A DNA stretch of 64,000 nucleotides from Acidobacteriota bacterium (lineage in GTDB: Bacteria; Acidobacteriota; Terriglobia; Bryobacterales; Bryobacteraceae): contig CANIVU010000029.1 of NCBI GenBank assembly GCA_947470805.1, positions 1,583 through 65,582 on the forward strand, read 5' to 3'. The notes beneath the pieces are model-generated. The model was not told the DNA's origin. It saw only the letters and a program-made list of their open reading frames with translations, and made no database searches. Shown here in pieces: positions 17,141-40,273 of the stretch (within the stretch, counting starts at the first letter, position 1; each line of letters begins with the position of its first letter). The translations under genes were made by a program, and so were the position numbers.

Positions 17141-17181
17141 GGGCCGTGCTACCGGAAATCACTGAGGTCGGATTTCCCCGG
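17141..17181. repeat. Dispersed copy of the 10.8-kb repeat core with hairpin
   Basis: gccgtgctaccggaaat (17143-17159) is identical to the core at 10783-10799 and 10936-10952. It is followed by a 7-bp inverted repeat, ggaaatc (17154-17160) / gatttcc (17171-17177). Confidence 0.7.
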
Positions 17182-17205
17182 CGGCTACGGATACACTAGA
17201 TAATC

Positions 17206-18612: not shown

Positions 18613-18633
18613 GAAAATAGGTACAATCGGGGT

Positions 18634-19545
18634 ATGTTTGCGCGATTTTTGGTACCTTTTGTATGCATTTCGACGCTCTTTTCACAAGGGTGGAAGGATC
18701 CATCGACGCATAAGACCCAGATGGTGCCCGTCGCCACCGGGGTCCAGTTGGAGGTCCTCGACTGGGGCGGCACCGGCCGGCCGCTGGTCCTTTTGGCCGG
18801 CTACCTCTCCGCGCACACCTATGACGACCTGGCTCCGAAGCTGACCGGGAGCTTCCATGTTTATGGGATTTCGCGCCGCGGCTACGGCGCCTCCACGCGG
18901 ACCGAAGAGGGCCATACGGCCGACTGGTCGGCCGCCGATGTCCTGAAGGTATTGGAAACGTTGAACTTGAACAACGTGATACTGGCCGGCCACTCCTGGG
19001 GCGGACAGGACGCCTCGACCATCGGCGCGCAGGGCTCGCCGCGGGTGACCGGACTGGTCTACATCAACTCCGCCGAAGACCCGACGCTGACCATGCCGGA
19101 CTACAAGATCCCGCCGGGCACCGTCCCTCCGACCGCCACCAAGCCGGTGCCGGTGGACCGCTCCTCCTTCGCCGCCTACATGGCTTGGCAGAAGAAAACA
19201 CAGGGGATGACGTTCCCGGAATCGGAATTGCGGCAGATCTACGAAGAGAAGCCGGACGGGAGCCTGGGCGCGGCGAAGTCGTCGCTGCAGATTCGCGACG
19301 CGATCTTCGCCGGCCGGAAGAAGCCGGAATACGCCAAGATCCAGGTGCCGGTGCTGGCGCTCTTCGCCAAAACCGACACGAAGAACCCGATCGATATCAT
19401 CATCCGCAAGCGGCACCGGGACGACTTTATTCAGGGCGTGCCGAAGGCGAAGGTGGTGGACATCGAAGGCGGGAACTTCTACCTGTTCGCGTCGCACCCG
19501 GACGAAGTGGCCAAAGAGATCATCGCCTTCGGCGCGGCCAAGTAA
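18634..19545 (+). CDS. Secreted alpha/beta hydrolase
   Basis: ORF trimmed to ATG 18634 (MFARFLVPFVCISTLFSQG signal). Motifs: LVLLAGY and nucleophile elbow GHSWGG. C-terminal region GGNFYLFASHPDEV. Confidence 0.85.
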   Translation: MFARFLVPFVCISTLFSQGWKDPSTHKTQMVPVATGVQLEVLDWGGTGRPLVLLAGYLSAHTYDDLAPKLTGSFHVYGISRRGYGASTRTEEGHTADWSAADVLKVLETLNLNNVILAGHSWGGQDASTIGAQGSPRVTGLVYINSAEDPTLTMPDYKIPPGTVPPTATKPVPVDRSSFAAYMAWQKKTQGMTFPESELRQIYEEKPDGSLGAAKSSLQIRDAIFAGRKKPEYAKIQVPVLALFAKTDTKNPIDIIIRKRHRDDFIQGVPKAKVVDIEGGNFYLFASHPDEVAKEIIAFGAAK

Positions 19546-19546
19546 G

Positions 19547-21604
19547 CTAGAGCGATTTCAGGTACTCGACCAGATCCCAGCGCTGGTCGTCGGTCATCTT
19601 CGTGCCGTACTCGTGACCGGCGTTCGAGTTGGTGAATTGAGAGGTATCGAAGAGGAAGCCGTCGTATTCGGATTCGCCGTGCTTGAGGCCCACCTTCTTC
19701 ACGTCGAGTTCGCGGGAGCCGACGCGGAACTTCTTCGGCCGGTCCGCGGCTGGCAGGAGCAGATCATATAGCGTCGGCACGGAGCCGTTGTGGAGGTAGG
19801 GCGCGGTGGCCCAGATGCCGTTGAGCGCCCGGCCCTTATAGGCCTGGAGCGATTGAAACGGAGCGGCGGTAGTGTCGGGGGTGTAATTACCCGCCTTGAC
19901 GCTGGGCTTGATGTCGTTGCCGGTGTATTCGTTGAACAGATCGACGGCCCATTCGGCGGCGCGGGTGAACCACCATTTATCGGGACTGGGGGTGGCGACG
20001 ACGTTTTCGGTGGCGGTGGTGAGGATGGCGGCGACGGGGGCCTTGGTGTTCAGCAGTACGGCGCCAACGCCGGCCTTCATGTACATGTTGCGCAGGATGC
20101 CGCTGAAGCCGTTGTACTGGACGCTGTTGTTGGCCATCGTCGGATCGGTCCCGGCGGCGGAGACCTTGTCCATGTGGGCAACGATGCGGCGACTGGAGCT
20201 GCTGCGATCGATGTTGGCGTGGCATGCAGCGCAGTGTTCGACGAAGAGCTTTTCGCCGCCGTCGCGCTTGGCGGGGTCGATGGCGGGCAGACCGGCGGCG
20301 GGGTCCTCCCAGCGGGGGGACTGGAGGCTCCAGAGACGGTCTTCCAACTGGCGCAGATTGTGGACGTTGACGGAGGACTGGAAACTGATGTGGGTGTCGC
20401 CGAAACCCTGGCCGCCGAGAACGGAGGAGACGGTCCAGCCTTTCTTCTGCTGCCAGTCGAGGGTGCCGAAGACGCCGATGACTTCGCCGGCGTTGCGACC
20501 GATGGGGCCGACGCCGCCGTTGGCGCCGATGCCGTTCCACTGCACGTAATCGTGTTGCGGAATGTCCCAAAGGAAGGGGTAGCTGACGGGGGCGTTGGGG
20601 GGATTGAAGACGCGGTCGCGGAGAGCGCGACGCTGCTCGATGGAGAGCAAGGCGACGAGGCGCTCCATGAGGTGGTCGCGATTTTCGCTGGTCAAGACTG
20701 GCTTCATTTTCTCCAGGAGCGCCTGGGACTGATCGAGAGGGAGGGCGCCGGTCAGAATCTCGCGGAGCGCTTCCGGATTGAGGACGTGTTCGAGAACGCG
20801 GTTGTAGATGCGGCCAAAGGCGTCGAGCCGCGCGTAGCCATAGGGCACGGGGGTCACGGAACCGTCGTCGTTGTGTTTGAAGCTGTCGTTGAAGAAGCTG
20901 TAGGCTTCCATGCGGAGGGTGTAGATGTCGAGGTCGAGGAGAATCTCGGCCTCGTCGTTGTAGTTACCGCTGTTCTTGACGGCGGCGACGAAGCGCTGGC
21001 GTTTGGCGGGGTCGGTCTTGGTGGCGGCGAGGGCGCGCCAGAGATCGTTCATGAAGCCGTCCATGTCGGCGGCGCCGGGGCCGCCATCGATGCGGATTCC
21101 GACGCCCTGGTAGTTAACCTGAGTGGTGTGGCAGGCGGCGCAGGTGAAGCCCATGTACTTCTTGCCACGATAGGTATCGGCGACCATGCCGAGCGGGAGG
21201 CCATCGGGGTTGCTCTTAGTGGGGCGCTGCGGGAGGTAACGGTAGCGGTTGACGTTTTCAGGGGCGCGGAAGGGCTGGTGCGCCTTTTCCTGTTCGACGT
21301 GGAGGAAGAAGTCGTAGGGGAGGAGGTTGGAGCCCTGGGTGGTGGAGTAGAACCAGAGGCTATCGGAGGCGGTCCAGCCTTGTTCGAGGTATTTCACCTG
21401 TTGGAACTTGTCGCCGAAGACGTCGGCGGAGACGGTGGCGGCGCCGCGGCCGGGGTCGCTGTCGGTGAACTTCTGGTAGAGGCTGCCGTACCAGGCGGTG
21501 GCGCGGACGAGGATGATCGCGACGAGTAGTGCGGCGGCGAGCCAGAGGGCGCGACGGCCGAGGGCGCCGATTTTGTGTATGAGATACACGAATGCCTTTT
21601 GCAT
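19547..21604 (-). CDS. Membrane-anchored di-haem cytochrome c, peroxidase/MauG-like
   Basis: N-terminal TM at LWLAAALLVAIILV. Two CxxCH motifs (FTCAACHTT, EHCAACHAN). CCP/MauG-like block GIWATAPYLHNGSVPTLYDLL. Confidence 0.78.
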   Translation of the reverse strand: MQKAFVYLIHKIGALGRRALWLAAALLVAIILVRATAWYGSLYQKFTDSDPGRGAATVSADVFGDKFQQVKYLEQGWTASDSLWFYSTTQGSNLLPYDFFLHVEQEKAHQPFRAPENVNRYRYLPQRPTKSNPDGLPLGMVADTYRGKKYMGFTCAACHTTQVNYQGVGIRIDGGPGAADMDGFMNDLWRALAATKTDPAKRQRFVAAVKNSGNYNDEAEILLDLDIYTLRMEAYSFFNDSFKHNDDGSVTPVPYGYARLDAFGRIYNRVLEHVLNPEALREILTGALPLDQSQALLEKMKPVLTSENRDHLMERLVALLSIEQRRALRDRVFNPPNAPVSYPFLWDIPQHDYVQWNGIGANGGVGPIGRNAGEVIGVFGTLDWQQKKGWTVSSVLGGQGFGDTHISFQSSVNVHNLRQLEDRLWSLQSPRWEDPAAGLPAIDPAKRDGGEKLFVEHCAACHANIDRSSSSRRIVAHMDKVSAAGTDPTMANNSVQYNGFSGILRNMYMKAGVGAVLLNTKAPVAAILTTATENVVATPSPDKWWFTRAAEWAVDLFNEYTGNDIKPSVKAGNYTPDTTAAPFQSLQAYKGRALNGIWATAPYLHNGSVPTLYDLLLPAADRPKKFRVGSRELDVKKVGLKHGESEYDGFLFDTSQFTNSNAGHEYGTKMTDDQRWDLVEYLKSL

Positions 21605-21773
21605 GGAGGCGGTCCTTGGATTGGAATAGGGCGGACTAGTAAGTCAAGACCGAGTAACTCGGGTGAATGCGCGCTCAATTACAACACAGGCGGGAAAGGG
21701 TGTCAACCCAAAACCATCCATTCGTTTTTGTTTCTTGTGTCACCAAATTCGCGAGGATATCGCTTGGGTGTTC

Positions 21774-23066
21774 ATGCGATTCTTTTTGCTCACTTTGATT
21801 CTGATAGCAGGCCTACGTCCAACGTGCCAGGCCGCGAAGACACGGATCTTTACGATGGAGGTGACGGTACGGGACGTCGCGGGAAACCCGATCCTGGGAG
21901 CCGGCGGAGTGCGGGTGGAGTTGAAGCAGTTTCCATCGGGAAAACAGGCTGCGTCTGGCGGCGCGGTGGAGTCAGGAGCGGCGCCGGGCGTGTACCGGGC
22001 TACGTTCCGGGAGGCGACAGGGATTTCGGCGGATTCTGCGGTACTGGAGAACCAGAGCTGGCAGGTGCGGGTCAGCGCGTCCGGCTACAAGGAGCGTTCG
22101 TTTGGACCACTGCGACTGAAGGAGCAGGACGGCCAAATTGTACCCGCCGAGGAAACGGCCAGGCTCGAAACGACACTGCTGCGGAACGGGCGGGAGTGGC
22201 AGGCTCAGTTTTCGTGTCCGCTGCCGGAGGCGCCATTGCCGGCGGCGTTTGTGCGACTGAACAACATCCTGGATGGCAAACAAGACAAATGCGCTCCGGT
22301 GCCGCAGGATGTCTACCTGCAGGTGCTTCGCGCCCCATTGCGAAGCCTGTTCAGAAAGAACCCGTCCATCAACGTTGGAACGTTATCGAAAAGCGGGTTT
22401 TACCAACTAGAGACCGAGAAGCACCCGGAGCAGGCGGCGCGGGCACGGGCGGCGATGCTGAACATCGCCCACGCGCTGAACACGGAAGCCGAAGCGGGCT
22501 GCATGGCACCCGCGCAGCCGGACTGGCTGGCGGAGATCCAACGTGTGCTGGTGATCAGCGAAGAGCGGATGATTGCACGGGTGAAGAAAGAGCTTTACCT
22601 GCGCGTACTGGAAATGGCGAATAACGCTCAGGTGTATACGTGCCAGTCGACGGTGACGGCGAGTGTGGCGCTGCACCTGTTTGACGATCCGGTGCTGTGG
22701 AAGACAACGGGTACCCGCGCGCGCGCCAGAGACACGCACAGCATCAAGACGCCATTATGCCAGGGGAATGTACAGATTACGGCGGCCAAGTTCGGCGATG
22801 GTGAGAACGCGGTCTATTTGGCCGATTTCGACATCGACGAAAATCTGGCGGCTGGGGCCCACTTGCTGGACGTGGTGCGTCACGCGGTGACAGGCCGGGG
22901 TACGGACGCCTACGAAGTGTACGAGATGCTGGTGGCACGGGGGCGGCACACCGAGGTAGAGATGGGTTACCGACTGGCGCAGCAAGGCAAGCCCGTAAAT
23001 CAGAGTTGCCCGGAAGCGAGGCGTCCGCTGATTACCGCGGATGGAACAGCAGCAGGTCCAAACTGA
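21774..23066 (+). CDS. Hypothetical secreted protein
   Basis: ORF trimmed to ATG 21774 (MRFFLLTLILIAGLRPTCQA signal). The N-terminal beta-sandwich-like segment TMEVTVRDVAGNPILGAGGVRVEL is carboxypeptidase-regulatory-like. The rest is unrecognised. Confidence 0.6.
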   Translation: MRFFLLTLILIAGLRPTCQAAKTRIFTMEVTVRDVAGNPILGAGGVRVELKQFPSGKQAASGGAVESGAAPGVYRATFREATGISADSAVLENQSWQVRVSASGYKERSFGPLRLKEQDGQIVPAEETARLETTLLRNGREWQAQFSCPLPEAPLPAAFVRLNNILDGKQDKCAPVPQDVYLQVLRAPLRSLFRKNPSINVGTLSKSGFYQLETEKHPEQAARARAAMLNIAHALNTEAEAGCMAPAQPDWLAEIQRVLVISEERMIARVKKELYLRVLEMANNAQVYTCQSTVTASVALHLFDDPVLWKTTGTRARARDTHSIKTPLCQGNVQITAAKFGDGENAVYLADFDIDENLAAGAHLLDVVRHAVTGRGTDAYEVYEMLVARGRHTEVEMGYRLAQQGKPVNQSCPEARRPLITADGTAAGPN

Positions 23067-23832
23067 ATGTCACCGGCTGGGCTTCCGGCGGACGTGGCTG
23101 CAGGGGCCGGTAGATGGCGAGCAGGACGTCGGCCACGCCGGCGGCGTCGAGGGCGGCGGTGGTGGTGACACGTTCGCGGGCAGCGAGGGTGAAGTCGCTG
23201 GCGAAGGTTTCGATGGTGCGGTCGATGCGGTCACGGCCGGCGCCGCGGAGTTCGATGAGATCTTCCGGGGCTGGGATGGCGACCAGGAGCCGGCCGCCGG
23301 AATGCAGCACGCGGCGGAACTCGGCCGGGTTCATGCGGGCGGTAATGGAGACGACGGCGGAGAAGGCGCCATCGGCATAGGGAATGGCGCGGTCGGCATT
23401 GGCAACGACCCAGGAGCAGGCGGGGTACTTCTTCGCCGCGGCGTCGATGGCGGGGATGGAGATATCGACGCCGTGGGCGGCAAAGCCGGTTTGGGAGGCG
23501 AGCGAACCGAGATAGAAGCCTTCGCCGCAGCCGGCGTCGAGGATGGATTCCTCGGCCTGGGGGGCGAGCATGGAGGCGATGCCGGCCAGAAGAGGCGCGG
23601 TGACGCCACGGGCGTGCAGGCGGCGGCGGGCGGCGACGGCATCGGCGGAGTCGCCGGGGTGTTTGGATTTCTTGTCCTGGGGCTGAAGGAGGTTAACGTA
23701 GCCGCTGCGGGCGACGTCGAACGAATGGCCGCTGCCGCAGACCCAGAGGCGGGCGTCGCGGAGGAGCGGTTTCTGGCAGTCGCGAACGGGGCAAAGGAGC
23801 ATGGGGGAAGTTCGCGGAAGCGCTCCTTTCAT
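23032..23832 (-). CDS. rlmA: 23S rRNA (guanine-N1)-methyltransferase RlmA-like
   Basis: Zn-finger-like CPVRDC...CGSGHSFDVARSGYVNLLQPQDKKSKHPGDS. SAM motif ILDAGCGEGFY. Met11 (23802) is an alternative start. Confidence 0.82.
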   Translation of the reverse strand: MKGALPRTSPMLLCPVRDCQKPLLRDARLWVCGSGHSFDVARSGYVNLLQPQDKKSKHPGDSADAVAARRRLHARGVTAPLLAGIASMLAPQAEESILDAGCGEGFYLGSLASQTGFAAHGVDISIPAIDAAAKKYPACSWVVANADRAIPYADGAFSAVVSITARMNPAEFRRVLHSGGRLLVAIPAPEDLIELRGAGRDRIDRTIETFASDFTLAARERVTTTAALDAAGVADVLLAIYRPLQPRPPEAQPVTFSLDLLLFHPR

Positions 23833-23858
23833 TATAATTCGGGGCTTATCATCAAAAC

Positions 23859-24311
23859 ATGAAGGTCGCCGAGATCATGAACCGCGCTCCGCTTTCGCTG
23901 CGCGACGACGAGACGTTTGGCAGCGCGTTCGAACGGCTGCGGGACGCGCAGGTGACGACGATCCCAGTGGTGGACGCTGACGGTGTCTACGAGGGCATTT
24001 TCGATCTGAAAGACATCTGGCGGCTGCTGTTGCCGCGGGCGGCGCATCTGAACCGGAATTCGATTGAAGATCTTTCGTTCGTATCGAGTTCGCTGGATAG
24101 AATGAAAGACGAGATCAGCGAGGCGGCTCCGTTGCCGATCCGACAGTTTCTGACCGCCGACGACCTGCCCGTGGTGTACGCCGATAGTCCGGTTCAACAG
24201 GCCATTCTCCTCATCGACAAGTACGGCGAGACGGTGGCGGTGGTGGACCGGCAGACGCGAAAACTGGTGGGCACCGTGTCGGCATGGCAGATCCTGGACG
24301 CGCTCCGGTAA
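23859..24311 (+). CDS. CBS domain pair protein
   Basis: 150 aa. MKVAEIMNRAPLSLRDDETFGSAFERLRDAQVTTIPVVD and a second CBS repeat, ...AILLIDKYGETVAVVD. Confidence 0.85.
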   Translation: MKVAEIMNRAPLSLRDDETFGSAFERLRDAQVTTIPVVDADGVYEGIFDLKDIWRLLLPRAAHLNRNSIEDLSFVSSSLDRMKDEISEAAPLPIRQFLTADDLPVVYADSPVQQAILLIDKYGETVAVVDRQTRKLVGTVSAWQILDALR

Positions 24312-24338
24312 CTACCCTTTTAGGAGACACACGCCCGC

Positions 24339-25664
24339 ATGCATGGAGAGACCGCCTATGGATGGAGCGCGGCGTGGTTGGCCACCGGTGTTTTTGTTGG
24401 CACTTATGCGCTGGTGATCAGCGACAAATTGAACCGGGCGGTGCTGGCGCTGCTGGGCGCGGCGCTGTTGATTCTATGTGGTGTGCTGAACCAGGAGGCG
24501 GCGATCCGAGGGATCGATTTCAACACCATCGGCCTGCTACTGGGGATGATGCTGATCGTTAACATCACGGCGAAGTCGGGCGTGTTTCAGTATGTGGCGA
24601 TCTGGTCGGCGAAGCGGGTGAACGCGCAGCCGTTGGGGGTGCTGTTCATGCTGTCGATGGTGACGGCGCTGCTGTCGGCATTGCTGGATAACGTGACGAC
24701 GGTATTGCTGGTGGTGCCGGTGACGCTGCTGATCACCGAGGAATTGAAAGTGAAGGCGTATCCGTATCTGATCGCCGAGGTGCTTTGCTCCAATATTGGC
24801 GGCACAGCGACGCTAATTGGCGACCCGCCGAACATCATGATCGGCTCGCTGGTGGGGATTCCATTTAACGACTTCATCTACCATCTGACGCCGGTGGTGA
24901 TTGTGGTTCTGCTGGTGTCGGCTGTGCCGTTCTATTTCCTTTGGCGGACGGAGCTGGTGGCAAGCGAGAAGGCGCGGCGGCGCGTGATGGAGTTCGAAGA
25001 GCGGGAGGCGATTCACGACTGGCGACTGCTGCGGCAGGCGCTGTTCGTGCTGGCGCTGGTGCTGACGGGCTTCTTCACTTCGCGGTTAACGCACCTGGAA
25101 CCGGCGACGGTTTCGATGGGCGGGGCGGCGTTGTTGTTACTGCTGGATAATTTCCGGAAGAGCGCCGAGGAGCAGGGGGCGAGCGTGCAGAAGGCGTTCG
25201 CGGAGGTGGAGTGGGTGACGCTGATGTTCTTCGCCGGGCTGTTCATTCTGGTGCACGGGCTGGAGGCGTCGGGCGTGATCCGGGCGATGGCGGAGAAGTT
25301 GCTGGCGGCGACGCAGGGGGACCGGACGGTGACGGTGTTGGCAGTGTTGTGGGGGTCGGCGTTTCTGTCGGCGTTCATCGACAATATTCCGTTTGTGGCG
25401 GCGATGATTCCGCTGATCAAAAGCATGGCGCCGGCGTTCGGCGGGGAGCAGGGACTTATGCCGTTGTGGTGGGCGTTATCGCTGGGCGCATGTTTGGGAG
25501 GGAATGGGACGTTGGTGGGAGCGTCAGCGAATCTGGTGGTTGCCGGGCTTGCCGAACGCGCCGGGCAGCCGATCAAGTTCGTCCCGTATTTGAAGTCGTG
25601 CTTCGGGCTGATGATTCTTTCGATCCTCGTTTGCCACGTTTATATCTATTGGCGCTACCTGTAG
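24339..25664 (+). CDS. ArsB/NhaD-superfamily anion permease (citrate-transporter-like)
   Basis: 441 aa with about 11 TM helices. Motifs: LLSALLDNVTTVLLVVP, NIGGTATLIGDPPNIMIG, FLSAFIDNIPFVAAMIPL. Confidence 0.85.
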   Translation: MHGETAYGWSAAWLATGVFVGTYALVISDKLNRAVLALLGAALLILCGVLNQEAAIRGIDFNTIGLLLGMMLIVNITAKSGVFQYVAIWSAKRVNAQPLGVLFMLSMVTALLSALLDNVTTVLLVVPVTLLITEELKVKAYPYLIAEVLCSNIGGTATLIGDPPNIMIGSLVGIPFNDFIYHLTPVVIVVLLVSAVPFYFLWRTELVASEKARRRVMEFEEREAIHDWRLLRQALFVLALVLTGFFTSRLTHLEPATVSMGGAALLLLLDNFRKSAEEQGASVQKAFAEVEWVTLMFFAGLFILVHGLEASGVIRAMAEKLLAATQGDRTVTVLAVLWGSAFLSAFIDNIPFVAAMIPLIKSMAPAFGGEQGLMPLWWALSLGACLGGNGTLVGASANLVVAGLAERAGQPIKFVPYLKSCFGLMILSILVCHVYIYWRYL

Positions 25665-25917
25665 GACGGGCGAAAAATATTTTCATGCCGTGATCAAATC
25701 CGGCCGTACCTGTCGCTGAGTGTCACAGAGAACGCAACATGACGATTATTGCCACGCTTCATTCCTTCTTCCAGCCCGCGACACGCACGGCAGAGACCCC
25801 GGCGCTGAAATGGCAGGCGCCGCCGCCGATGACCGATGACGCCCTGCACGGCGGGCGGGCGCGGACAGTACGCAAGGTGGCCTGTCCGGCGCCCACGTTC
25901 TTACCGGCGCGGGGAGT

Positions 25918-26781
25918 TCAATCGTAGAGCAGCTCGGCATAGCGGCCGTCGGCGTTGAGCTTTGACTTCAGATCGAGCCACGGCTCCTTACCGCCAGCCA
26001 TCTCCTCCATCGCCACTTCGAACTTCGTTTCGGCGGCGGTGAGCCCGGCGACGTAGACGAAGGTCTTGGAGTCCTGCAGCATCTCCCAGATTTCGGCGGA
26101 GTTTTCGAGCAGCACGCGGTCGAGCGCGGGCGGCGCGTCGTAGTGCGGGCGGGGACTGATGGCTTCGAAGGCGCGGAAGGAACTCTGATCGTAGTAGAGC
26201 GCCAGATCCTTGCGGAAATCGTTCATGTAGAGCAGTTCCATGCCGCTCTTGGCACCGAAGAAGAGCCGTACTTTTCCCTGCCAGGCGCCGTGGCGCTGAT
26301 AGATGTGCTTGACGAAGGCACGGAAGGGGGCGATGCCGGTGCCGGCACCGACCATAAGGAGATTGGCATCGTCGTTCTGCGGCACTTCGAACTGCACGCC
26401 GTAGGGGCCGGTGATTTGAATGGGATCGCCTGGATTGGCATCGCACAGGAAGTTGGAAGCGCGCCCCGGGTAGCGCTCGCCGCTGATGTCATCGATGGAG
26501 AAGCAGCGGCGAACGCAGATGGAGATGGTATCGCCGCGGCCATCGTCGCCGCCGCGGGGGCTGGCGATGGAGTACAGGCGCAGATGGTGCTCGTTGCCGA
26601 ACTCGTGGGGGCCGGGGGCGAGAACACCGATGCTCTGGCCCTCGACGTAATCGAACGGCGTGTCGGGCAACCGGAGCACCAAGTGGCGCACCTCCGCCTC
26701 CCAACCCAGGGGCGTAATCCGCTCGCTACTGACAAGCGTTGTCGTGTAGGAGTGATTCAGATCGTATTCATTCAGTCTCAT
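25918..26781 (-). CDS. Plant-type ferredoxin-NADP+ reductase
   Basis: YVEGQSIGVLAPG...LRLYSIASPRGGDD...ISICVRR...ITGPYG...LLMVGAGTGIAPFRAF matches the FNR FAD/NADP signature. The start overlaps the upstream stop (ATGA at 26778-26781). Confidence 0.87.
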   Translation of the reverse strand: MRLNEYDLNHSYTTTLVSSERITPLGWEAEVRHLVLRLPDTPFDYVEGQSIGVLAPGPHEFGNEHHLRLYSIASPRGGDDGRGDTISICVRRCFSIDDISGERYPGRASNFLCDANPGDPIQITGPYGVQFEVPQNDDANLLMVGAGTGIAPFRAFVKHIYQRHGAWQGKVRLFFGAKSGMELLYMNDFRKDLALYYDQSSFRAFEAISPRPHYDAPPALDRVLLENSAEIWEMLQDSKTFVYVAGLTAAETKFEVAMEEMAGGKEPWLDLKSKLNADGRYAELLYD

Positions 26782-28847: not shown

Positions 28848-29902
28848 ATGGCACCTTCCGGTTTGCGCGCGCCGTAGGGGCGGGGCGGCGTCAGGCGGTC
28901 GATCAGCGGGGACAGCGCGTTGCCGAGAAGGATGGCGCACATGACGCCTTCGGCGAGGCCGCCGAGGTTGCGGATGAGGATGGTCAACACGCCCATCAGC
29001 ACGCCGTAGATCCACATGCCGCGCGGGGTGACCGGGGAGGCCACCGGGTCCGTCGCCATGAAGGTGGCGCCGAGGAGCAGGCCGCCGGTGAAGAGCATGA
29101 AGAGCGGGTCGGGGTAGCGGGCAGGGTCAAGGAGATGGAACCCCGCCGCCGCTGCCACCGCCCCGCTCAGCATCGCTACGGGGATGCGCCAATCCATCAT
29201 GTGGCGGAAGACCAGGTAGGCGCCGCAGAGGAGAATCAGGAACCCCGGGATTTCGCCCGATGAGCCCGCGCGCTGGCCCCAGAACATGGGCCAGGGGTCG
29301 GTGTAGATGTGGTCGAATTTTTGGAGGACTAATGGAGTGGCGCCGGTGAAGCCGTCGACGCGGACCTGCGAGATCCAGTCGGCGATGGGCGGCGGTTTCA
29401 TCAGCGGCATGGTCCAGGTGGTGGGGACGAATTCGGCGAAGCGCGCTTTGGCTAGGGTCGGCGTGTAGGTGGTGATGGCCACCGGGAAAGCCGCTTGCAG
29501 AAAGGCGCGGCCGACGAGGGCCGGATTGAAGACATTAGACCCGAGACCGCCGAAGAGCAGTTTGCCGGGGGCGATGGCGACCAGGCTGCCGAGCAACGCC
29601 ATCCACAGCGGGAAGCCGGGAGGGAGAGTGAGCCCGAGCAACAGGCCGGTGATGGCGGCGCTGTAGTCGTTGACGGTGGAGGCATTGCCATTGGCGCGGC
29701 AGAGAATATGTTCGGCCAGCACGCAACCGGCGGTGGTTGTCGCGAGCAGCACCAGGGCGCTGAGGCCGAACTGCCAAACGGAGAACGCGGCCAGCGGCAG
29801 CATGGCGTAGACCACGTTCCGCATGATCATGTCCACGGAAAGCGGCCCGTGAAGATGCGGGGACGTGCGGACTTCGATGATGGTCGTGGTGACACCGCTC
29901 AT
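28844..29902 (-). CDS. rnfD: Rnf complex subunit D
   Basis: ORF trimmed to ATG 29902. SPHLHGPLSVDMIMRNVVYAMLP and FTGATPL (flavinylation-type motif). Polytopic. Confidence 0.92.
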   Translation of the reverse strand: MSGVTTTIIEVRTSPHLHGPLSVDMIMRNVVYAMLPLAAFSVWQFGLSALVLLATTTAGCVLAEHILCRANGNASTVNDYSAAITGLLLGLTLPPGFPLWMALLGSLVAIAPGKLLFGGLGSNVFNPALVGRAFLQAAFPVAITTYTPTLAKARFAEFVPTTWTMPLMKPPPIADWISQVRVDGFTGATPLVLQKFDHIYTDPWPMFWGQRAGSSGEIPGFLILLCGAYLVFRHMMDWRIPVAMLSGAVAAAAGFHLLDPARYPDPLFMLFTGGLLLGATFMATDPVASPVTPRGMWIYGVLMGVLTILIRNLGGLAEGVMCAILLGNALSPLIDRLTPPRPYGARKPEGAI

Positions 29903-31224
29903 GCGCGCGCCTTCCTTTCCCGGTTCATCTGCTTGGCGACTCGGAAATACTGCACCAGCGGGATGTGCGCCGGACAGACATAGCTGCAACAGGCGCATTC
30001 AAAACAGTCGTTCAAGTGGTAGATCTCTTCCATCTCTTCGTAGCGATCCTTGCGCGCCAGCAGGCCCAGGTGGGAGGGGTCCAGATGCAGCGGGCAGACA
30101 TCGACGCAGGCCGCGCAGTGGATGCAGGGGTAGATAGTTTCGGCCTTCTTCGCGGGCATCACCAGGACGCCGGTAACGCCTTTGGTGAGGGGGATGTCGA
30201 AGGAGCCGACGGCCGGGCCCATCATGGGGCCGCCGAGGATGATCGACGCCGCCTGGTCGGTGCAACCGGCTTGTTCCAGCACCCAGCGCAACGGCGTGCC
30301 GAGGGGGATGAGGTAGTTGCCGGGCTTGCTGACGGCGGGTCCGGTGACGGTGACGACGCGCTCAATGAGCCCGTGGCGGTGCGGCAGCAGTTCGCCGATC
30401 TGGGCGAGCGTGGCGACGTTGAAGACGGCGAGGCCGACATCGGCGGGCAGACCACCGGTGGGGATTTCGCGGCCGAGCAACACTTTGACCAGCATCTTCT
30501 CGGCGCCTTGCGGGTACTTGGCGGCGACGGCTTCGATGGTGATATCAGGCCGGTCCGCATTGGCTTTGCGGAGCGCGGCGATGGCGTCCGGCTTGTTGTC
30601 TTCGACGCCGATGACGGCGCGTTCGACACCGAGCGCCCGCATCACCACACGCGTGCCGTGTAGCACCTGTTTGGGGTACTCCACCATCACGCGATGATCA
30701 GTGGTGAGATACGGTTCGCACTCGCAACCATTGACGACGACGGTATCGATATGCCGTCCCTGCGGGGGCTTCAATTTGACGTGTGTCGGGAATGCCGCGC
30801 CGCCCAGACCCACGACGCCGGTCGCCTGCACGGCGGCGATGACTTCAGCCGGCGACATCTGTGTGATGTCCTGATCGGAGCCGTAGAGCACCTCCTGGCT
30901 GGCGCTGGGATACGGCTTGATGTAGATGGCCATGGTCAACTCGCCGCGGGCGCTGGGCGCCGGGGCGATGCGTTCCACGCGGCCGGTGGCGGGGGCGTGC
31001 ATGGGGACGCTCATGAAGCCATCGGCTTCAGCGATCGGTTCACCTCGCACCACTTCCTGACCCTCGCGAACGATGGCCTTGGCCGGTTTGCCGGCGTGTT
31101 GCAACAGCGGGACGACGAGCAATGGCGGGAACGGCAGACGCCGAATCGGCAGATGCGCGGTCTGCTCCTTGTTTTCCGGGACATGTACGCCCCGCCATAA
31201 CCGTTTTGTTCCGAAGAGGTTCAT
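29899..31224 (-). CDS. rnfC: Rnf complex subunit C
   Basis: VPLLQHAGKPAKAIVREGQEVVRGEPIA. NADH-site-like GLGGAAFPTHVKL. Two 4Fe-4S motifs, CIHCAACVDVCP and CFECACCSYVCP. Confidence 0.92.
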   Translation of the reverse strand: MNLFGTKRLWRGVHVPENKEQTAHLPIRRLPFPPLLVVPLLQHAGKPAKAIVREGQEVVRGEPIAEADGFMSVPMHAPATGRVERIAPAPSARGELTMAIYIKPYPSASQEVLYGSDQDITQMSPAEVIAAVQATGVVGLGGAAFPTHVKLKPPQGRHIDTVVVNGCECEPYLTTDHRVMVEYPKQVLHGTRVVMRALGVERAVIGVEDNKPDAIAALRKANADRPDITIEAVAAKYPQGAEKMLVKVLLGREIPTGGLPADVGLAVFNVATLAQIGELLPHRHGLIERVVTVTGPAVSKPGNYLIPLGTPLRWVLEQAGCTDQAASIILGGPMMGPAVGSFDIPLTKGVTGVLVMPAKKAETIYPCIHCAACVDVCPLHLDPSHLGLLARKDRYEEMEEIYHLNDCFECACCSYVCPAHIPLVQYFRVAKQMNRERKARA

Positions 31225-31243
31225 GCGAGTGACTCCTGCGGCA

Positions 31244-34200
31244 CTAGTTGTACTTCGCCGCGCGCTTCACGAGCTTCTCCAAATCCTTCTCCGACGGGTC
31301 CATGGGCTGCCCGGGGTGAATGACCTGCGCCGTGCACTTTTCGGCCGCTTTCACCAGATCGCGATACGGTCCGCCCTTCGCGTTCTTGATAATGGCCTGT
31401 TTGTTCTCGTTGTAGGCGAAGATGCGGTTGTTGATCCGCATGCACTCGTCGCAAGAGGTGCACATGGAGGATTCGATCCAAGGTGCGCTGGAGGCCGCGG
31501 CGGGGGCGGCGGGAGCCGGGGCGGGGGCGACCGATGTCGCTGTAGGGACCGGGGCGGCGACGGCCTTGACGGCCATCGGCGCCGGAGCCGCGCCGTCACC
31601 GAGCAGGCTGCCATTGGCAACCATCTCCAGCAACTGCGCCGCAATGGACTGCGCGAATTCGCTGCGCGCCTGTTCGGCGATCGCCGTTGTGTCGACGGCG
31701 GGCCGGACGCCTGCCAGCGACTTCAAGAGCCGCCAGAAGTGGCGTCGATCCTCGCAGGAGTGAACCAACGGTTCGGCGGGAATCACGCGGATCAGCTTGT
31801 TCTTCTTGTTCACCGCCCAGATGTAGGGGAACTTCCCTTCCCTGTCGTCGGCTTCGAACTCTAGATACTCGGCGAGCGGGACCATGTTGTCGTTCCAGGC
31901 GTCGCGCGGTACCGTGCGGAACTGTTTGCGGAAGCGGCCTTCGGTCATGGCGAAGTCGGCGAAGGTCATCGGGACCTCCATTTCGCCGGGCGCGCCGTTC
32001 TCGTCCTGATACTTCAGGGTATAGGTCGGCCAGTCGTCGTCGAGCGAGGGATTGCCGTCGAGGTTCAAGCACTCTTCCGGCAGGTTTCCCTTGTCGGGGT
32101 TGTAGCGGAGGATGGGGTAGGCCCGCGATTCGACGGCGAGCTTGCTCTGGAATTCCGCCAGATCGTCGGCGATTCCGTGCTCCGGCATGCAGGGGCTGTA
32201 GATGTTGAACAGCGCTGGCCGGCGAGCGTTCAGGCCTTCGACGAACGATTCGATCAGGTGCGACGTATTCGCCGTCGTGCCCTGGGCGATGAAGGTCGTT
32301 CGGTGCGCCATGCCGATGAGCGCGATCTCCTTTCGGATCTCTTCCTTGCCGTGGAACGCTTTGCCGTACTGAGCCATATCGGAAACCTGACCCGTAAAGC
32401 CGGACGTGCATGCCTGGCCGCCGGTGTTCGAATAGACCTGCGTATCGAGCACCAACACCTTGATCGGCTTACCGGACATCATCATGCGCGACAGGTTTTG
32501 GAAGCCGATATCGTACATCGCGCCATCGCCGCCGATGGAGACGACAGGCGGGCAGAGGTGGAACTCCTCGTCGGTGAACTGCTTCCAGTTGAAGTAGGTG
32601 AAGAACTCGCCGTGCTTCTCTTTGCGGTAACCGCCGTCGAGTTCCATCTCGGCCATCCGGATGGCGACGAAGCCTTCGGCCATGCGGGCCATGTGGCCTT
32701 CAAAGATACCCATCGCCATGGACGGCGAATCCTGGAAGAGGTGGTTCGTCCACGGGAACGGGTAGGGGTTGAAGGGGTAGGTCGACGCCCATACGGACGT
32801 GCAACCGGTGGAGTTGACGATGCCCATGCTGGCGCGGCCGCGGCGGCCGGCACCGTCGGTGTACTGCCAGCGCAGGTGCTTCAACTTGGCGATTAGCTGC
32901 GACACCCAGCGGAGCCATTCCGGATCGATGGTCTTGCCGGCGTGGCGGGCGTCGAGTTGTTCAGAGAAACTCGCCAGCGTGACATCGGCGTTGTGCAGAT
33001 GGTCGAGCGCGTTGGCCACACGGGCGTCGTCACTGAGATCGATCGTGGCCGCGAGCTTCAACCGCGTGTGCTGGTCGAGCCGGGCAATCAGATCGTCGAT
33101 CTTCTCAATCTGCCGGGCCACGCGCGGTTGCATCAGCGCTTCCGCGGTCGCAACAAAGAGGTGCACCACGGTCTTCTCACCACAGCCCAGGCAGGCGCCG
33201 TCGCCGCCCACCATGCCCATGTAGTTCTTCCTGTCGAGCAGCAGCGTATGCAGCGCGCCGATGCCCTCGTCGAGGCTATCGATGCGTATGAACTCGGGGG
33301 CCGTTGTCGGCAGGGACTGCCACAGATCCCAGTTACGCCGCAGCTTCTCCGTCGATTCCGGCGTCTGCGTCACCGGCTTCAGCGCGTTGTCGTTACAGAC
33401 CTTGACACACTCCATGCAGCCCTTACAGGCGAACGGATTGACGGTAATCGACAACAGACCGCCGGATCCCTGCTGCTTTTTCTCGCGCGCCGTCCAGAAG
33501 GGCTGCGGCGTGGCAAAGGCAAAGTCACCGACCGCGGCGCGCAGGTTGTGCAGTTCCTCGGTGAGTTCCTTCTTCTCGGTGTTTTCGAGCGGATAGGCCG
33601 CCAGCAAATCTTCCATCGCGGCGTCGAGCATCTTGCCGACGTCGGGCCTGCTCATGCCGTCGCCGAGCTTCGCGCGCAGCTTCTGGTCCAAGGTACGAAT
33701 GGCTCGGGGCAACTGCCTGGCTGGCTGGCCGTTGGCGATCACTTTCTTCATCGCCGTTTCCAACACGGCCAGCACAGAGTGCACGAGGCCGGGAATCGCG
33801 CTGTCGGGACAAATCGTGTAGCAGGCGCCGCACGCCGTGCAGTTCTCCGGCAGCCATTCGGGATGCTCGAACCGCACGCCGGTCATGTCGCGGAACAGAG
33901 CCGTGGTGGCGGGGATGAAGCTGAGGCCGATAAACGGGTCGGCCAGATTGTCGTTCCCGCGGCCGGTGGCGTAAAAGGTGCCGGTCTGCTCCCAGAAGCG
34001 GTGGATGTCGGTGGTCGCCGTCGCCGCGGCCACTTGCCGCTGCAGCACCATCGGCACATCCGGCGCCTTGCGAACGGCGAGCGGAGTGGCGTTGATTTTT
34101 TTGTCTTTAATCTCCTTCACCTCGTCGAATCCGCGGCGCACGACGCGCACGTTGTCTTCTACCACTCGCGCGCCCTTGGTGCCGAACTTGTGCTCGAGTT

Positions 34201-36184
34201 GCAAGCGGATGGCCTGGAACAGATTCTGATCGGTCAACTTCGCCTGGCCCATCAACGGCGAGGCCGCAAAGAAGGCGCCCTGGAAGGCGTTGCCCTGCAT
34301 GCGGAACTGCAGTTCGACGTCAGTGGCCTCTTCGCGGGCGATTTTAAAGGCGTCCAGGTAGTAGAGGTGAATCTCGTTGTCGATCAGAATCCGCTGGAAC
34401 TTCTCAGGAATCTGTTGCCAGACGTCGGCCGGATCGGTATGCGCGCTCTGCAAAATGAACACGCCGCCGCGCTTCAAACCAGCCAGAGGATTGGAGTGCA
34501 GGAACACGTTCGGATCGGGCGAGAGCACCACGTCCACGTAGAAGTAGTCGCAGTTGACGCGAATCGGCTCGGGCGCCGCGGCCAGGTAGTAGGTGGTCGG
34601 TTGCCCCTTCTTTTCGGAACCGTATTTCGGGTTGGCTTTGATGTGATAGCCCAACAGGTCAAACAGCGTCATCGCCAGGTTTTTGCCTGTCGTGATCGCG
34701 CCCCAGCCGCCCACCGAATGGAACCGCACAGTGATGCTGTTTTTCGGCATCAGGTTCGGATTCTCGCTGCCATGGACGGCCAGCGCCTTCAGCCCCGGAT
34801 AGGCGTCGGCCACCTGGATCTGATGGATCTCCTGTTTCGGTGTGAACGGCTTGTCGTGCACGAAGTCGATCGACAGGTAGAAAAACCTCCGTTTGCCGCC
34901 GTTCGGCAACATGTTTTCAATCGCGCCAATCAGCCCTTCCGGCTGTAAGTCGCGGCTGCCCAGGCCGAACGAACCGGAATACAGCGGCGGCATATCTTCG
35001 GCTTTTTTATAGCTCGCGTAGCCTTCGTGCACCACGCCGGAGCGGCCATTCTCCACGCAGCGGCCCAGCGCCGCGCGCACTTCACGGATCAGCGGCAAAT
35101 CTTCGGCCAGCGGTTGATCCACGCGTTCCAGTACGGTCACGCCCTTGCGGCCCTGCAGCAAGGCGCCCAGCACATCGCCGGGGAACGGGCGGAACATCGT
35201 AAGGTTCACGACGCCCACTTTCAGCTTCCGGGTCTCGCGCAGATAGTCGGCCACAACCTCGGCCGTCACCAGCATGCTGCCCATTCCAAGGATCAGGTAT
35301 TCAGCGTCTTCGGCGCGATAGGTGGACACGCGCTGATAGCGGCGCCCGGTCAGCGCGTAGAACTCCTCCATCGCCTGATCGGTGATCCCTGCAATATGGG
35401 CGAAGAAGTAGGGCCGTTGCGCGGCCACGCTCTGCATGTAGGCGTCCTGGTTTTGCACCGTCCCGATCATCACGGGATTGTCCACCGTCCACAGCTCCGG
35501 AATGCGGCGCCGTTGCGGCCCGTAGAGGAGCCGTTGCGCCGGGGTCGGCGTGTCGATGATGTCGTCCGGCCGGCCCAGGTATTCCTGAATCAACTCGCGC
35601 TCCGGTAGCAGCAGCGATTCGATCAAGTGCGTGGTAAGAAACCCGTCCTGCGCGCAGATGCCCGGCGTCAACGACAGTTCGGCGATCCGGTGCGAGATGA
35701 TGTTCAAATCGCACACTTCCTGCGCGCTCTTGCCAAAGAGTTGGAAGAACCCGGTGTCATCAATGCAGTGATAGTCGTCGTGGCCGGCGTGCACATTCAG
35801 CGTCGATTTCGTCATCGCGCGGCAGCCCATGTTCAGTACATAAGTGAGCCGCTTGCCGACGGCCGCGTACAGCGACTCGTGCATGTAGGCAATGCCCTGC
35901 CCCGACGAAAAATTGGTCGCGCGCAGCCCGGTCATCGAAAGCCCGGCCGTCACGGCGGCGGCGGCATGTTCGCCTTCCGGTTCAATGAAAATCAACGGGC
36001 GGCCGGAGATGTTGATGTGGCCTTTGGCCGACTCTTCAGCCCAGTATTCGCCCATCTGCGTGGAGGGAGTGATCGGGTATGCACCCGCGGCGTCGCTCGA
36101 CTCCCGTTCGCACATAACGACGGCGGTGTTCCCATCCATCGCCTGCCGCACGCCGGGGTAACGGAAGCTCTGTTTGCCATTCAT
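31244..36184 (-). CDS. Giant (1646 aa) pyruvate/2-oxoacid:ferredoxin oxidoreductase-like protein with C-terminal ferredoxin-like domain
   Basis: Core motifs: AYPITPSTQMGEYW; VRFHSVGGWGAITTGKNLA; CTACGACYTICP and CKGCMECVKVCN; GDGACLGCGEKT; STGCTSVWAS; GGDGAMYDIGFQNL...LDTQVYSNTGGQ. These are followed by an Ala/Pro linker and then CTSCDECMRINN...AAEKCTAQVIHPG. Confidence 0.9.
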   Translation of the reverse strand: MNGKQSFRYPGVRQAMDGNTAVVMCERESSDAAGAYPITPSTQMGEYWAEESAKGHINISGRPLIFIEPEGEHAAAAVTAGLSMTGLRATNFSSGQGIAYMHESLYAAVGKRLTYVLNMGCRAMTKSTLNVHAGHDDYHCIDDTGFFQLFGKSAQEVCDLNIISHRIAELSLTPGICAQDGFLTTHLIESLLLPERELIQEYLGRPDDIIDTPTPAQRLLYGPQRRRIPELWTVDNPVMIGTVQNQDAYMQSVAAQRPYFFAHIAGITDQAMEEFYALTGRRYQRVSTYRAEDAEYLILGMGSMLVTAEVVADYLRETRKLKVGVVNLTMFRPFPGDVLGALLQGRKGVTVLERVDQPLAEDLPLIREVRAALGRCVENGRSGVVHEGYASYKKAEDMPPLYSGSFGLGSRDLQPEGLIGAIENMLPNGGKRRFFYLSIDFVHDKPFTPKQEIHQIQVADAYPGLKALAVHGSENPNLMPKNSITVRFHSVGGWGAITTGKNLAMTLFDLLGYHIKANPKYGSEKKGQPTTYYLAAAPEPIRVNCDYFYVDVVLSPDPNVFLHSNPLAGLKRGGVFILQSAHTDPADVWQQIPEKFQRILIDNEIHLYYLDAFKIAREEATDVELQFRMQGNAFQGAFFAASPLMGQAKLTDQNLFQAIRLQLEHKFGTKGARVVEDNVRVVRRGFDEVKEIKDKKINATPLAVRKAPDVPMVLQRQVAAATATTDIHRFWEQTGTFYATGRGNDNLADPFIGLSFIPATTALFRDMTGVRFEHPEWLPENCTACGACYTICPDSAIPGLVHSVLAVLETAMKKVIANGQPARQLPRAIRTLDQKLRAKLGDGMSRPDVGKMLDAAMEDLLAAYPLENTEKKELTEELHNLRAAVGDFAFATPQPFWTAREKKQQGSGGLLSITVNPFACKGCMECVKVCNDNALKPVTQTPESTEKLRRNWDLWQSLPTTAPEFIRIDSLDEGIGALHTLLLDRKNYMGMVGGDGACLGCGEKTVVHLFVATAEALMQPRVARQIEKIDDLIARLDQHTRLKLAATIDLSDDARVANALDHLHNADVTLASFSEQLDARHAGKTIDPEWLRWVSQLIAKLKHLRWQYTDGAGRRGRASMGIVNSTGCTSVWASTYPFNPYPFPWTNHLFQDSPSMAMGIFEGHMARMAEGFVAIRMAEMELDGGYRKEKHGEFFTYFNWKQFTDEEFHLCPPVVSIGGDGAMYDIGFQNLSRMMMSGKPIKVLVLDTQVYSNTGGQACTSGFTGQVSDMAQYGKAFHGKEEIRKEIALIGMAHRTTFIAQGTTANTSHLIESFVEGLNARRPALFNIYSPCMPEHGIADDLAEFQSKLAVESRAYPILRYNPDKGNLPEECLNLDGNPSLDDDWPTYTLKYQDENGAPGEMEVPMTFADFAMTEGRFRKQFRTVPRDAWNDNMVPLAEYLEFEADDREGKFPYIWAVNKKNKLIRVIPAEPLVHSCEDRRHFWRLLKSLAGVRPAVDTTAIAEQARSEFAQSIAAQLLEMVANGSLLGDGAAPAPMAVKAVAAPVPTATSVAPAPAPAAPAAASSAPWIESSMCTSCDECMRINNRIFAYNENKQAIIKNAKGGPYRDLVKAAEKCTAQVIHPGQPMDPSEKDLEKLVKRAAKYN

Positions 36185-37101
36185 GAGTGCACTCCTTGAG
36201 TTGAACTATTTGCCCGCTGCAGAGGCAGGTCCGCCTCGGCCACAGGTAACGGCGATTGCCGTGTAATTCGCTTTGCGTCCAGGCCGCGCATGGGCGGCTT
36301 GTCCTTTTCCATCCACACGATTGCCCCGGTCGGGCAGCGCTGGATGGGCGTTGGTGTCGCCAGCGCGTTTCGCGCATAGTCGACCACCGCCAGATTGTTG
36401 ACAATTTGAATCAGCCCCGCAGGCGCATCCGCGGCGCAACGTCCGCACGCCGTGCAGGCAACTTCGCAATCCAACTCCGACTGCTGCCCGTCGGCTAGAT
36501 TCTTACAGGCTACCCACAGGCGGTGGCTCACCAGATGCAAAGAAAACAGTTGTTTCGGGCAGATGTCGACACAATCGCCACACGCGGTGCACATGGAAGG
36601 CATCACGACGGGCAGGCTGTGACGATCCATCGTGATCGCCTTGAAATCGCAGACCCGCTCGCAATCCCCCAGGCCCAGGCACCCCCAACTGCAACCCTTG
36701 CCACCACCGTTGACCAATGCTGCCGCACGGCAGGTCTGCAAACCCACGTATTGAGCCCGGTGGCGCGCCACATGGGGCCCGCCAGCACAGGCTAATCGCG
36801 CCACCCGGCGTTCTTCGGTCCCGGCGTCGATCTGCAATAACGCGGCGATCGCCTGCACCCCATCCGGCGTGCTAACCGTGCACTTGCCCGGCGCGATTTC
36901 GCCCTTTACCGCCTTCTCCGCGAACGCCCGGCAACCCGCGCAGCCGCAGGCGCCGCAGTTGGCCTTCGGCAGCATCCCCTCGACTTCATCGATTCGAGGA
37001 TCCTCATACACATACAACTTCCTGTCGGCATAAGCGAGCATCGCCGCCAGTGCGACCCCGATCCCGCCCATCACCCCGCCGGCAACCAGGAACTCATTCA
37101 T
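36181..37101 (-). CDS. rnfB: Rnf complex subunit B (polyferredoxin)
   Basis: N-terminal TM at VAGGVMGGIGVALAAMLAY. Motifs: CGACGCAGCRAFAEKA, then CSWGCLGLGDCERVC, CTACGDCVDICP and CTACGRCAADAP. The stop overlaps the PFOR start (ATGA 36181-36184). Confidence 0.88.
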   Translation of the reverse strand: MNEFLVAGGVMGGIGVALAAMLAYADRKLYVYEDPRIDEVEGMLPKANCGACGCAGCRAFAEKAVKGEIAPGKCTVSTPDGVQAIAALLQIDAGTEERRVARLACAGGPHVARHRAQYVGLQTCRAAALVNGGGKGCSWGCLGLGDCERVCDFKAITMDRHSLPVVMPSMCTACGDCVDICPKQLFSLHLVSHRLWVACKNLADGQQSELDCEVACTACGRCAADAPAGLIQIVNNLAVVDYARNALATPTPIQRCPTGAIVWMEKDKPPMRGLDAKRITRQSPLPVAEADLPLQRANSSTQGVHS

Positions 37102-37344
37102 ACTTTCACCCTCCTCGTCGCGCCATCCCGCCCGGAGACGGTGGGGGATATGCCCCGGTGGCCGGGGGCCCCATCGGCCCGCTCACCCGAAAGGGCGCCG
37201 GAAACGATAGAAAAAGTCCTGATTTCGGCCTTTTTTGTGGTTATCCATGTCCTCATAGTGGCTCTGTCCGCAGCTTTTCCTTCGCAAGATCAGGGCCAAA
37301 CCGGCGATTCCGTTTGGCATTCAACTTGCACCCCACCCCACCGT
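37102..37344. promoter_or_regulatory. Divergent control region between rnfB operon and apbE-kor operon
   Basis: 243-bp non-coding gap between two outward-facing start codons. It contains the only AT-rich stretch nearby (gatagaaaaagtcctgatttcggccttttttgtggttatcc). No specific operator recognised. Confidence 0.3.
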
Positions 37345-38370: not shown

Positions 38371-38372
38371 AC

Positions 38373-40271: not shown

Positions 40272-40273
40272 CC

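Follow-up and report, generated by a model that had tools for sequence, protein, structure and literature searches.

How can a segment of a bacterial chromosome show a strand asymmetry opposite to that of both its neighbors when its genes keep the order and orientation that they have in related genomes? This question is raised by a stretch of 64,000 nucleotides (from here on the window; G+C 62%) from a member of the Bryobacteraceae (Acidobacteriota; contig CANIVU010000029.1), in which a block with its core at 19.6-30.6 kb and its shoulders reaching to 18.0 and 37.0 kb has a G/C skew opposite to that of the DNA on either side. The answer that is favored here, with a probability of about 0.45, is that the block results from allelic replacement by homologous recombination, in one or more events that shortly preceded the split between the species of the window and its sister species, the incoming alleles being those of relatives that replicate this locus the other way. 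The block is a variant of a known signal, the local skew anomaly that marks DNA of different history.

For three proteins of the window, homologues are annotated as Bryobacteraceae or Bryobacterales. The genes of the window were placed by combining codon-position G+C (GC-frame), Pfam and NCBIfam matches and the gene calls of identical public contigs. When calculated over 2-kb intervals, the raw GC skew ranges from -0.15 to -0.47 in both flanks and from +0.07 to +0.22 at about 19-32 kb. The same reversal is seen gene by gene when the plus-strand G/C skew at third codon positions (GC3 skew) is considered. It is negative in 33 of the 33 flank genes (-0.29 to -0.81) and positive in 11 of the 11 genes between 19547 and 31224 (+0.20 to +0.57), in both cases irrespective of the strand on which the gene lies (Fisher test on the skew signs of block versus flank genes, p = 1.3e-10). 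The plus-strand genes of the block, which are CBS (+0.20), CitMHS (+0.47) and the gene at 21774-23066 (+0.30), show a shift with the same sign on the DNA strand as that of the minus-strand genes. Intermediate values are found for the alpha/beta hydrolase gene (0.00), the PFOR-like gene (+0.08) and rnfB (-0.14). The G+C and GC3 contents of the block are the same as those of the flanks. An earlier note on this DNA, made from hand counts, had claimed a block of reversed skew at 18613-37344; the block is real, and the note's description of the codon endings of block and flanks is correct. The per-gene GC3 skew is a calculation that the note had proposed.

The positions of the skew steps were obtained by maximum-likelihood segmentation of the third-position plus-strand G/C skew. 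Up to 18.0 kb the GC3 skew is -0.65; it steps at 18009 (support 17997-18039) to -0.10 for the segment of 18.0-19.6 kb, at 19604 (support 19562-19634) to +0.42 for the segment of 19.6-30.6 kb, at 30634 (support 30589-30646) to +0.06 for the segment of 30.6-37.0 kb and at 36964 (support 36958-37350) to -0.46 for the segment of 37.0-54.1 kb, the last step, near 54.1 kb, leading back to -0.65. The step at 18009 lies inside the intact gene of an HGSNAT-like acyltransferase (17206-18276, plus strand), and the step at 30634 lies inside an intact rnfC. The coordinates given earlier thus bracket the whole anomaly well, and the rnf/PFOR part is, as had been noted, compositionally intermediate, with the right shoulder close to zero. 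The 21-nt gap between the divergent start codons at 18612 and 18634, in which the left switch had been placed, does exist, but the switch is not inside it, being instead a two-step transition between 18.0 and 19.6 kb.

The strand bias outside the block is extreme, with a GC3 skew of -0.65 over 326-17991 and 54135-62678 and down to -0.81 in single genes of both orientations, and similarly extreme values are found in the relatives L007, L011 and L015. The stretch of 37-54 kb is less biased than either end of the window. The step from -0.46 to -0.65 at ~54130 is near the boundary between a tetR gene and the gene of an ECF sigma factor.

The profile is also seen outside this contig. An identical cytochrome c gene is present on at least 15 contigs from several metagenomes, and six of these, which were read, match the window over 4-22 kb with 99.9-100% identity. 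A sister species (strains S1, S2 and S3), having about 88-92% nucleotide identity to the window, has the same skew profile, with a skew of +0.31 to +0.35 in the block as compared with +0.42 in the window. The near-identical contigs from several metagenomes, together with the same profile in the sister species, rule out an assembly artefact. When metagenomes were scanned with RnfC for more close strains, the best among the matches listed was 77% identical.

For the comparison of gene order, relatives were found via the HGSNAT-like, PFOR-like and cytochrome c proteins, and their gene neighborhoods were then read. At the left boundary the order is HGSNAT-like (+), where present the hydrolase (+), cytochrome c (-), RlmA (-), CBS and CitMHS (+), FNR-like (-) and rnfAEGDC (-), and this order is the same in L007 (81% amino acid identity), L010 (78%), L015 (74%) and L184 (76% for the cytochrome c, and 77% for an orthologue of the hydrolase), which differ from the window here only by small gains and losses. 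In these four lineages one skew sign, negative like that of the left flank of the window, extends across the left junction. The far-left flank is collinear with L007 and L015. At the right boundary the order rnfC, PFOR, rnfB (-), followed by the divergent apbE, korA, korB (+), is the same in L018, L020, L183, L027 and L022 (as judged from apbE and/or korA). The genes of the block are found at the same site in L007, L015, L018, L020 and L184, so that the segment is not absent from the syntenic site. At neither the left nor the right junction are the ends of the block swapped relative to the relatives, and in none of the relatives with readable boundaries is the block inverted. The synteny breakpoints that had been anticipated near both boundaries are therefore not found. 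An inverted block would have exchanged its ends, which argues against an inversion in place or an insertion in reverse, and breakage and rejoining would not leave steps such as those at 18.01 and 30.63 kb within intact, conserved genes. Three routes to an opposite bias with intact gene order remain, and only these: homologous replacement, an even number of inversions and a real local difference in the direction of replication.

Relatives with the opposite skew at this locus are observed. In L020, L182, L183, L026 and L024, lineages at similar distance, the skew is positive across the rnf side of the locus, whereas it is negative at the rnf side in L007, L184 and L022. In L018 it is +0.4 at CBS/CitMHS, +0.51 at the next gene, about -0.1 from rnfD to rnfB and -0.43 at korA; in L020 and L183 it is +0.3 to +0.67, falling to about 0 at apbE/korA; and in L024 it drops after PFOR. 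In some members of the family the locus may coincide with a switch of the terminus type, and this would supply donors with just the graded pattern that the block of the window has on its right side.

Homologous recombination inside the block is demonstrated by the comparison with the sister species. The tract of rnfA, rnfE and rnfG (26.6-28.8 kb) is 70-80% identical to the sister species, versus about 90% around it, and its edge at the rnfG/rnfD junction (28.8 kb) is sharp. At third positions, the window and the sister species are about 73-83% identical in most genes and 53-62% identical in rnfA, rnfE and rnfG; in the window these three genes are no closer to the sister species than they are to other genera (66% amino acid identity for RnfG), whereas rnfD and rnfC are 93-98% identical. 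Within this tract the alleles of the sister species are nearer to those of L020 and L007 than the alleles of the window are, so that it is the window that imported the tract, after the two species had split. The rnfA-E-G tract is thus a clean homologous import from a distant donor. The case is less clear for CBS-CitMHS (23.8-25.9 kb), which form a second divergent tract, as CBS and CitMHS are duplicated in the sister species and their orthology is uncertain. In rnfB, the window and the sister species (L016 and L179) are 62.6% identical at third positions and 96.7% identical at codon positions 1+2, and the skew of rnfB is -0.14 in the window as against -0.33 in the sister species, in which the right-hand skew step is about 0.7 kb further left; this divergence is probably another small exchange. 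Two strains of the sister species that differ by about 3% elsewhere share some patches that are 99.5-100% identical. In the HGSNAT-like gene the clade of the window is closest to L007 in residues 1-268, and not in residues 269-356 (the last 88 codons), which is a weak hint that this gene may be a mosaic.

A sequence of events can be proposed from these observations. The Bryobacteraceae chromosome would be one with an unusually strong replication-associated strand bias, and the whole window would now be replicated in one way, with the minus strand as the G-rich leading strand. The region of 18.0-37.0 kb, and above all its core of 19.6-30.6 kb, would have been overwritten by homologous recombination and not turned in place, the incoming alleles having come from one or more related lineages in which the syntenic locus was replicated oppositely or spanned a skew switch. 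With the crossovers inside conserved genes, the order and orientation of the genes would be kept, and only the G/C bias at third positions would betray the foreign replication history. The exchange would have occurred shortly before the species of the window and its sister diverged, and the bias would have relaxed only slightly since. We infer recombination as the source of the main block, the timing of this event and the present direction of replication from this combination of observations. In agreement with such an exchange, the gene order is collinear, the steps are inside the HGSNAT-like gene and rnfC and the rnfG/rnfD edge is sharp; tract ends in conserved genes are a trace of homologous exchange, unlike breakage and rejoining. 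It is possible that the near-zero shoulders correspond to an older and more relaxed exchange, to the donor's own skew gradient or to a patchwork near the crossovers.

The timing was considered with a two-class purine/pyrimidine model of skew relaxation. At third positions, the transversion divergence of the window is about 10% from its sister species and 20-30% from L020. Under this model, each lineage would have lost about 12-13% of its skew after the two species separated, and about 30% after the separation from L020. If the block had a skew near +0.55 immediately before the species separated, a value near +0.4 is expected today, as compared with the values of +0.42 (window) and +0.31 to +0.35 (sister species) that are seen, and a block being a relic from a deeper ancestor would, according to the model, be near +0.2 or lower. 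The left flank, with -0.65 in both species, is not a relaxing relic of the same age.

The direction of recent substitutions was obtained from the differences between strains S1 and S2 (97.1% identical), with S3 added where available, polarized by using the window as the outgroup. On the plus strand, the substitution spectrum of the block is closer to that of the flank than to the complement of the flank spectrum, with a log-likelihood difference of 4.2. The per-site ratio of purine-to-pyrimidine over pyrimidine-to-purine changes is 1.36 in the block and 1.38 in the flank, where a mirror image would have 0.72. The equilibrium skew that is implied by these changes is about -0.04 to -0.13 for the block (+0.37 observed) and -0.27 for the flank (-0.51 observed). 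Since the flank equilibrium is also far from its observed value, the bias from parsimony and polymorphism must be large, and the equilibrium test is only suggestive. These data weakly indicate that the block is a relic under flank-like strand pressure. Polarizing the changes between the window and the sister species with distant outgroups is uninformative, the result following each outgroup's own skew.

Several points weigh against an origin of the main block by replacement. The test against the mirror image gives a z of 1.99 with all block sites and of 1.15 without the tract of foreign outgroup, and the parsimony bias and the expected substitution signal point the same way. A donor lineage is absent among the lineages compared: L020 is the nearest outgroup for the genes of the block and of the right flank alike, at similar identities (RnfC 92%, PFOR 87%, KorA and KorB 88%), so that there is no phylogenetic discordance for the main block, a different nearest relative and a different divergence being seen in the rnfA-E-G sub-tract. 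Third positions of the block are not more diverged between the two species than those elsewhere, although a segment so far from equilibrium would perhaps be expected to change faster. One import event should leave two sharp edges, and four nested steps are seen. Finally, in L018, L020/L183 and L024 the skew falls between rnfG and korA, in the same direction as at the right boundary of the window, and this recurrent drop near rnfB/apbE could be a long-lived replication feature of the locus and not the result of an exchange. Part of this drop is accounted for by the PFOR-like gene, which has an intrinsic C excess on its coding strand of about 0.1-0.15 relative to its surroundings, an excess that is also found in other phyla, in taxa that are GC-rich. 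The large drops are not accounted for in this way.

The recurrence of this drop leads to the first rival explanation, in which the block is native, being located just left of a terminus-type skew switch (rnfC-rnfB) that is common to part of the family, and it is the left flank that is imported or of the wrong polarity. The change from positive to negative skew near this position recurs in lineages that are too diverged for a passive relic, and in the window it is gradual, over about 6 kb, with the polarity of a terminus and resembling a zone where replication forks meet. This explanation must then account for a left flank of at least 18 kb that has the strongest skew of the window in both species and that, if relaxing, would have started near -0.8, the junction between this flank and the block being ancestral. 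Unlike at a terminus, a second change, of origin polarity, is located only 11-19 kb to the left, and other relatives are without a switch. A dif-like site is not found in the window at 7 or fewer mismatches to the general consensus, which may not be the acidobacterial one, and there are no xerCD, ftsK or replication genes among the ~50 genes scanned. As part of the recurrent offset is intrinsic to the PFOR-like gene, and the block substitution spectrum weakly favors flank-like pressure, a native block with an anomalous left flank at the same switch is considered less likely than a replacement, and on the whole unlikely.

Two inversions could also give an opposite skew with restored collinearity, and without a donor: the block would have been inverted on the stem lineage, have equilibrated to the opposite skew and have been inverted again shortly before the species split. 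This is in agreement with the absence of phylogenetic discordance between block and flank genes, and the stem branch is long enough for equilibration, given the transversion divergence to L020. It requires, however, two events with the same end points, at boundaries where no inverted repeats or recombinase genes are found and where two of the steps are inside intact genes. A nested four-step profile is not expected from it, and the intermediate, inverted arrangement is in none of the relatives with readable boundaries. This history is regarded as unlikely.

Of still lower standing is the idea that the block is truly replicated backwards. An unrecognized initiation or restart site near 18-19.6 kb would make the block replicate in the direction opposite to both neighbors in most cell cycles, with the rightward fork meeting the main fork in a collision zone at rnfC-PFOR-rnfB that is shared in shifted form by L018, L020 and L024, so that block and flanks would all be at equilibrium. 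From left to right, the changes (negative to positive, then positive to negative) have the polarity of an origin and then of a terminus, and the left one (1.6 kb) is sharper than the right one (6 kb). The pattern is stably kept by two species with a nucleotide difference of 10%, and there is no excess of synonymous divergence in the block. On the other hand, the five near-matches to DnaA boxes in the 64 kb correspond to the chance expectation, without a cluster at 18-20 kb, no AT-rich unwinding region is present at the left switch, where the lowest G+C over 200 nt is 0.50, and replication genes are lacking, as noted above. No more than 21-57 nt of intergenic sequence is available at the switch. 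In relatives that carry these genes the skew is uniform, the polarized substitutions lean the other way and no mechanism is known that would make an ectopic start fire only seconds ahead of the arriving main fork. A local reversal of replication is thus very improbable.

A segment with a G/C asymmetry opposite to that of both neighbors, affecting genes of either strand, is the signature of an intra-replichore inversion, and the earlier note had accordingly proposed that the segment was inverted or inserted in the opposite orientation. The likeness is real: the two flanks have the same sign, the sign change is strong and independent of the gene strand, the composition is that of oppositely replicated DNA and inversion is the cause that textbooks give for local skew reversals. 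The inversion or insertion itself does not stand, as the window is collinear with at least eight relatives across both boundaries and rnfB is still divergently paired with its functional partner apbE, as in the relatives. In addition, the steps at 18.01 and 30.63 kb are intragenic and signs of mobile elements are absent. A search of the junctions for short inverted repeats had been proposed, and such repeats are not seen: only chance-level matches of up to 38 nt, with ~70-87% complementarity, are found, and none pairs both boundaries convincingly. A single inversion in place, or a foreign block inserted in reverse, is contradicted by synteny and is taken to be highly improbable.

With a horizontally acquired genomic island the block shares the compositional discontinuity that marks DNA of different history, but it consists of core syntenic genes (the rnf operon, rlmA and others) located at the same place in relatives, its G+C and GC3 contents do not differ from those of the flanks and it has no integrase or tRNA target. 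Pfam domains of integrases, transposases and conjugation proteins are absent among the ~50 genes scanned at 17-40 kb and in the rest of the window, and no tRNA or Rfam family is found in the window; these negatives do not extend to direct repeats at the boundaries, for which no search was made. When the left 7.8 kb of the block (18200-26000) was compared with plasmids and phages, only single-gene similarities were obtained for plasmids and none for phages.

If the rnf/PFOR operon were highly expressed, selection on codon usage or a bias linked to transcription would fit the coding-strand C excess of the PFOR-like gene (~0.1-0.15), which shifts the plus-strand value upward here, but plus-strand and minus-strand genes of the block are shifted in the same DNA-strand direction, the effect size of ~0.9-1.1 is far above that offset and the same genes are negative in L007, L184 and L022, so that this cause has a negligible probability, being ruled out by the strand independence within the block.

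Homologous replacement, the reading that is preferred here, is best compared with the imports that are known from mosaic core genes. As in those, tract ends are in conserved genes and collinearity is kept, and the rnfA-E-G tract has the sharply raised divergence to the sister species and the different nearest relative of such imports. These are usually found by the density of single nucleotide polymorphisms, whereas here the main signal is a reversed strand bias, which needs a donor locus that is oppositely replicated, and in the available sampling the main block is without excess divergence or a discordant nearest relative. Literature searches returned nothing relevant.

A local skew reversal is routinely taken as the sign of an inversion, an island or a misassembly, and the strong reversal with entirely conserved gene order that is described here indicates that this shortcut can be wrong. 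If recombination is indeed the cause, strand bias is a marker of imports between differently arranged relatives even when the divergence signal is weak, and the extreme skew of the Bryobacteraceae makes them a good system for dating such events by the relaxation of the bias. If the block is truly replicated backwards, the replication of bacterial chromosomes would have a feature that is not known so far. What has been found is an evolutionary footprint and not a new molecular machine, and its value is mostly methodological and evolutionary.

The gene content of the segments is as follows. The left flank (1..18008, genes on both strands, plus strand C-rich) encodes BrkB, UvrB, a DUF2520/HATPase (kinase-like) protein, an esterase, a sulfatase, a Ser/Thr kinase and an ECF sigma factor, and includes most of the HGSNAT-like gene. 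The left shoulder (18009..19604) holds the last ~90 codons of the latter, an open reading frame (ORF) of 122 amino acids (18244-18612, minus strand) and the alpha/beta hydrolase gene (18634-19545, plus strand). The core (19605..30634, plus strand G-rich, genes on both strands) extends from the gene of a di-haem cytochrome c peroxidase (19547-21604, minus strand) through the 3' half of rnfC. Between them are the gene without an assigned function (21774-23066, plus strand), the gene of an RlmA-type methyltransferase (rlmA; 23032-23832, minus strand), CBS (23859-24311, plus strand), the gene of the CitMHS transporter (24339-25664, plus strand), that of an FNR-like reductase (25918-26781, minus strand) and rnfA, rnfE, rnfG and rnfD (26987-29902, minus strand), the recombinant tract of rnfA, rnfE and rnfG being at 26600..28847 on the minus strand. 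The right shoulder (30635..36964, minus strand) has the 5' half of rnfC, the gene of a PFOR-like 2-oxoacid:acceptor oxidoreductase of 1646 amino acids (31244-36184, minus strand) and most of rnfB (36181-37101, minus strand). The right flank (36965..54130, plus strand C-rich) has apbE (37345-38370, plus strand, divergent from rnfB) and genes of a korA/korB-like oxidoreductase, a globin, a methyltransferase, an M48 peptidase and RND efflux proteins.

On the minus strand, rnfB, the PFOR-like gene, rnfCDGEA, an ORF of ~70 amino acids and the FNR-like reductase gene form one co-oriented cluster (25918-37101), from which apbE diverges. The long PFOR-like protein recurs, with 61-66% identity, in Gammaproteobacteria, Bacteroidota, Myxococcota, Hydrogenedentota and others. 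In the intergenic region between rnfB and apbE (37102-37344), a near-palindromic motif, GGTGGGGGATATGCCCCG, is located upstream of rnfB and is kept in the window, the sister species and L183, and variants of it are found upstream of rnfB in L018 and L022. An element of ~60 nt (CCATGTCCTCATAGTGGCTCTGTCCGCA ... GGGCCAAAC) upstream of apbE/korA is common to the window and L018. Neither the motif nor the element matches an Rfam family.

The ORF of 122 amino acids that is located at the left boundary is a member of a widespread protein family (~100 amino acids; 523 representatives), in which Cys18, Asp24, His30, His78 and Trp88 are conserved. It has no Pfam, NCBIfam or PHROG match and no fold match in the Protein Data Bank, and nothing in its family, structure or fold comparisons ties it to replication or recombination. 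Its AlphaFold model is confident, with a predicted local distance difference test score (pLDDT) of 86. Its third positions are 94.6% identical to those of the sister species, as compared with 75-83% for its neighbors.

The interval between the cytochrome c gene and rlmA (21605-23031 in the window, 14579-17851 in L011 and 5886-5991 in L012) is a hotspot of insertions and deletions. It contains one gene in the window, two in strain S2 of the sister species, of which one is 50% identical to that of the window, and none in strain S1. All accessory genes of this interval share the positive skew of the block.

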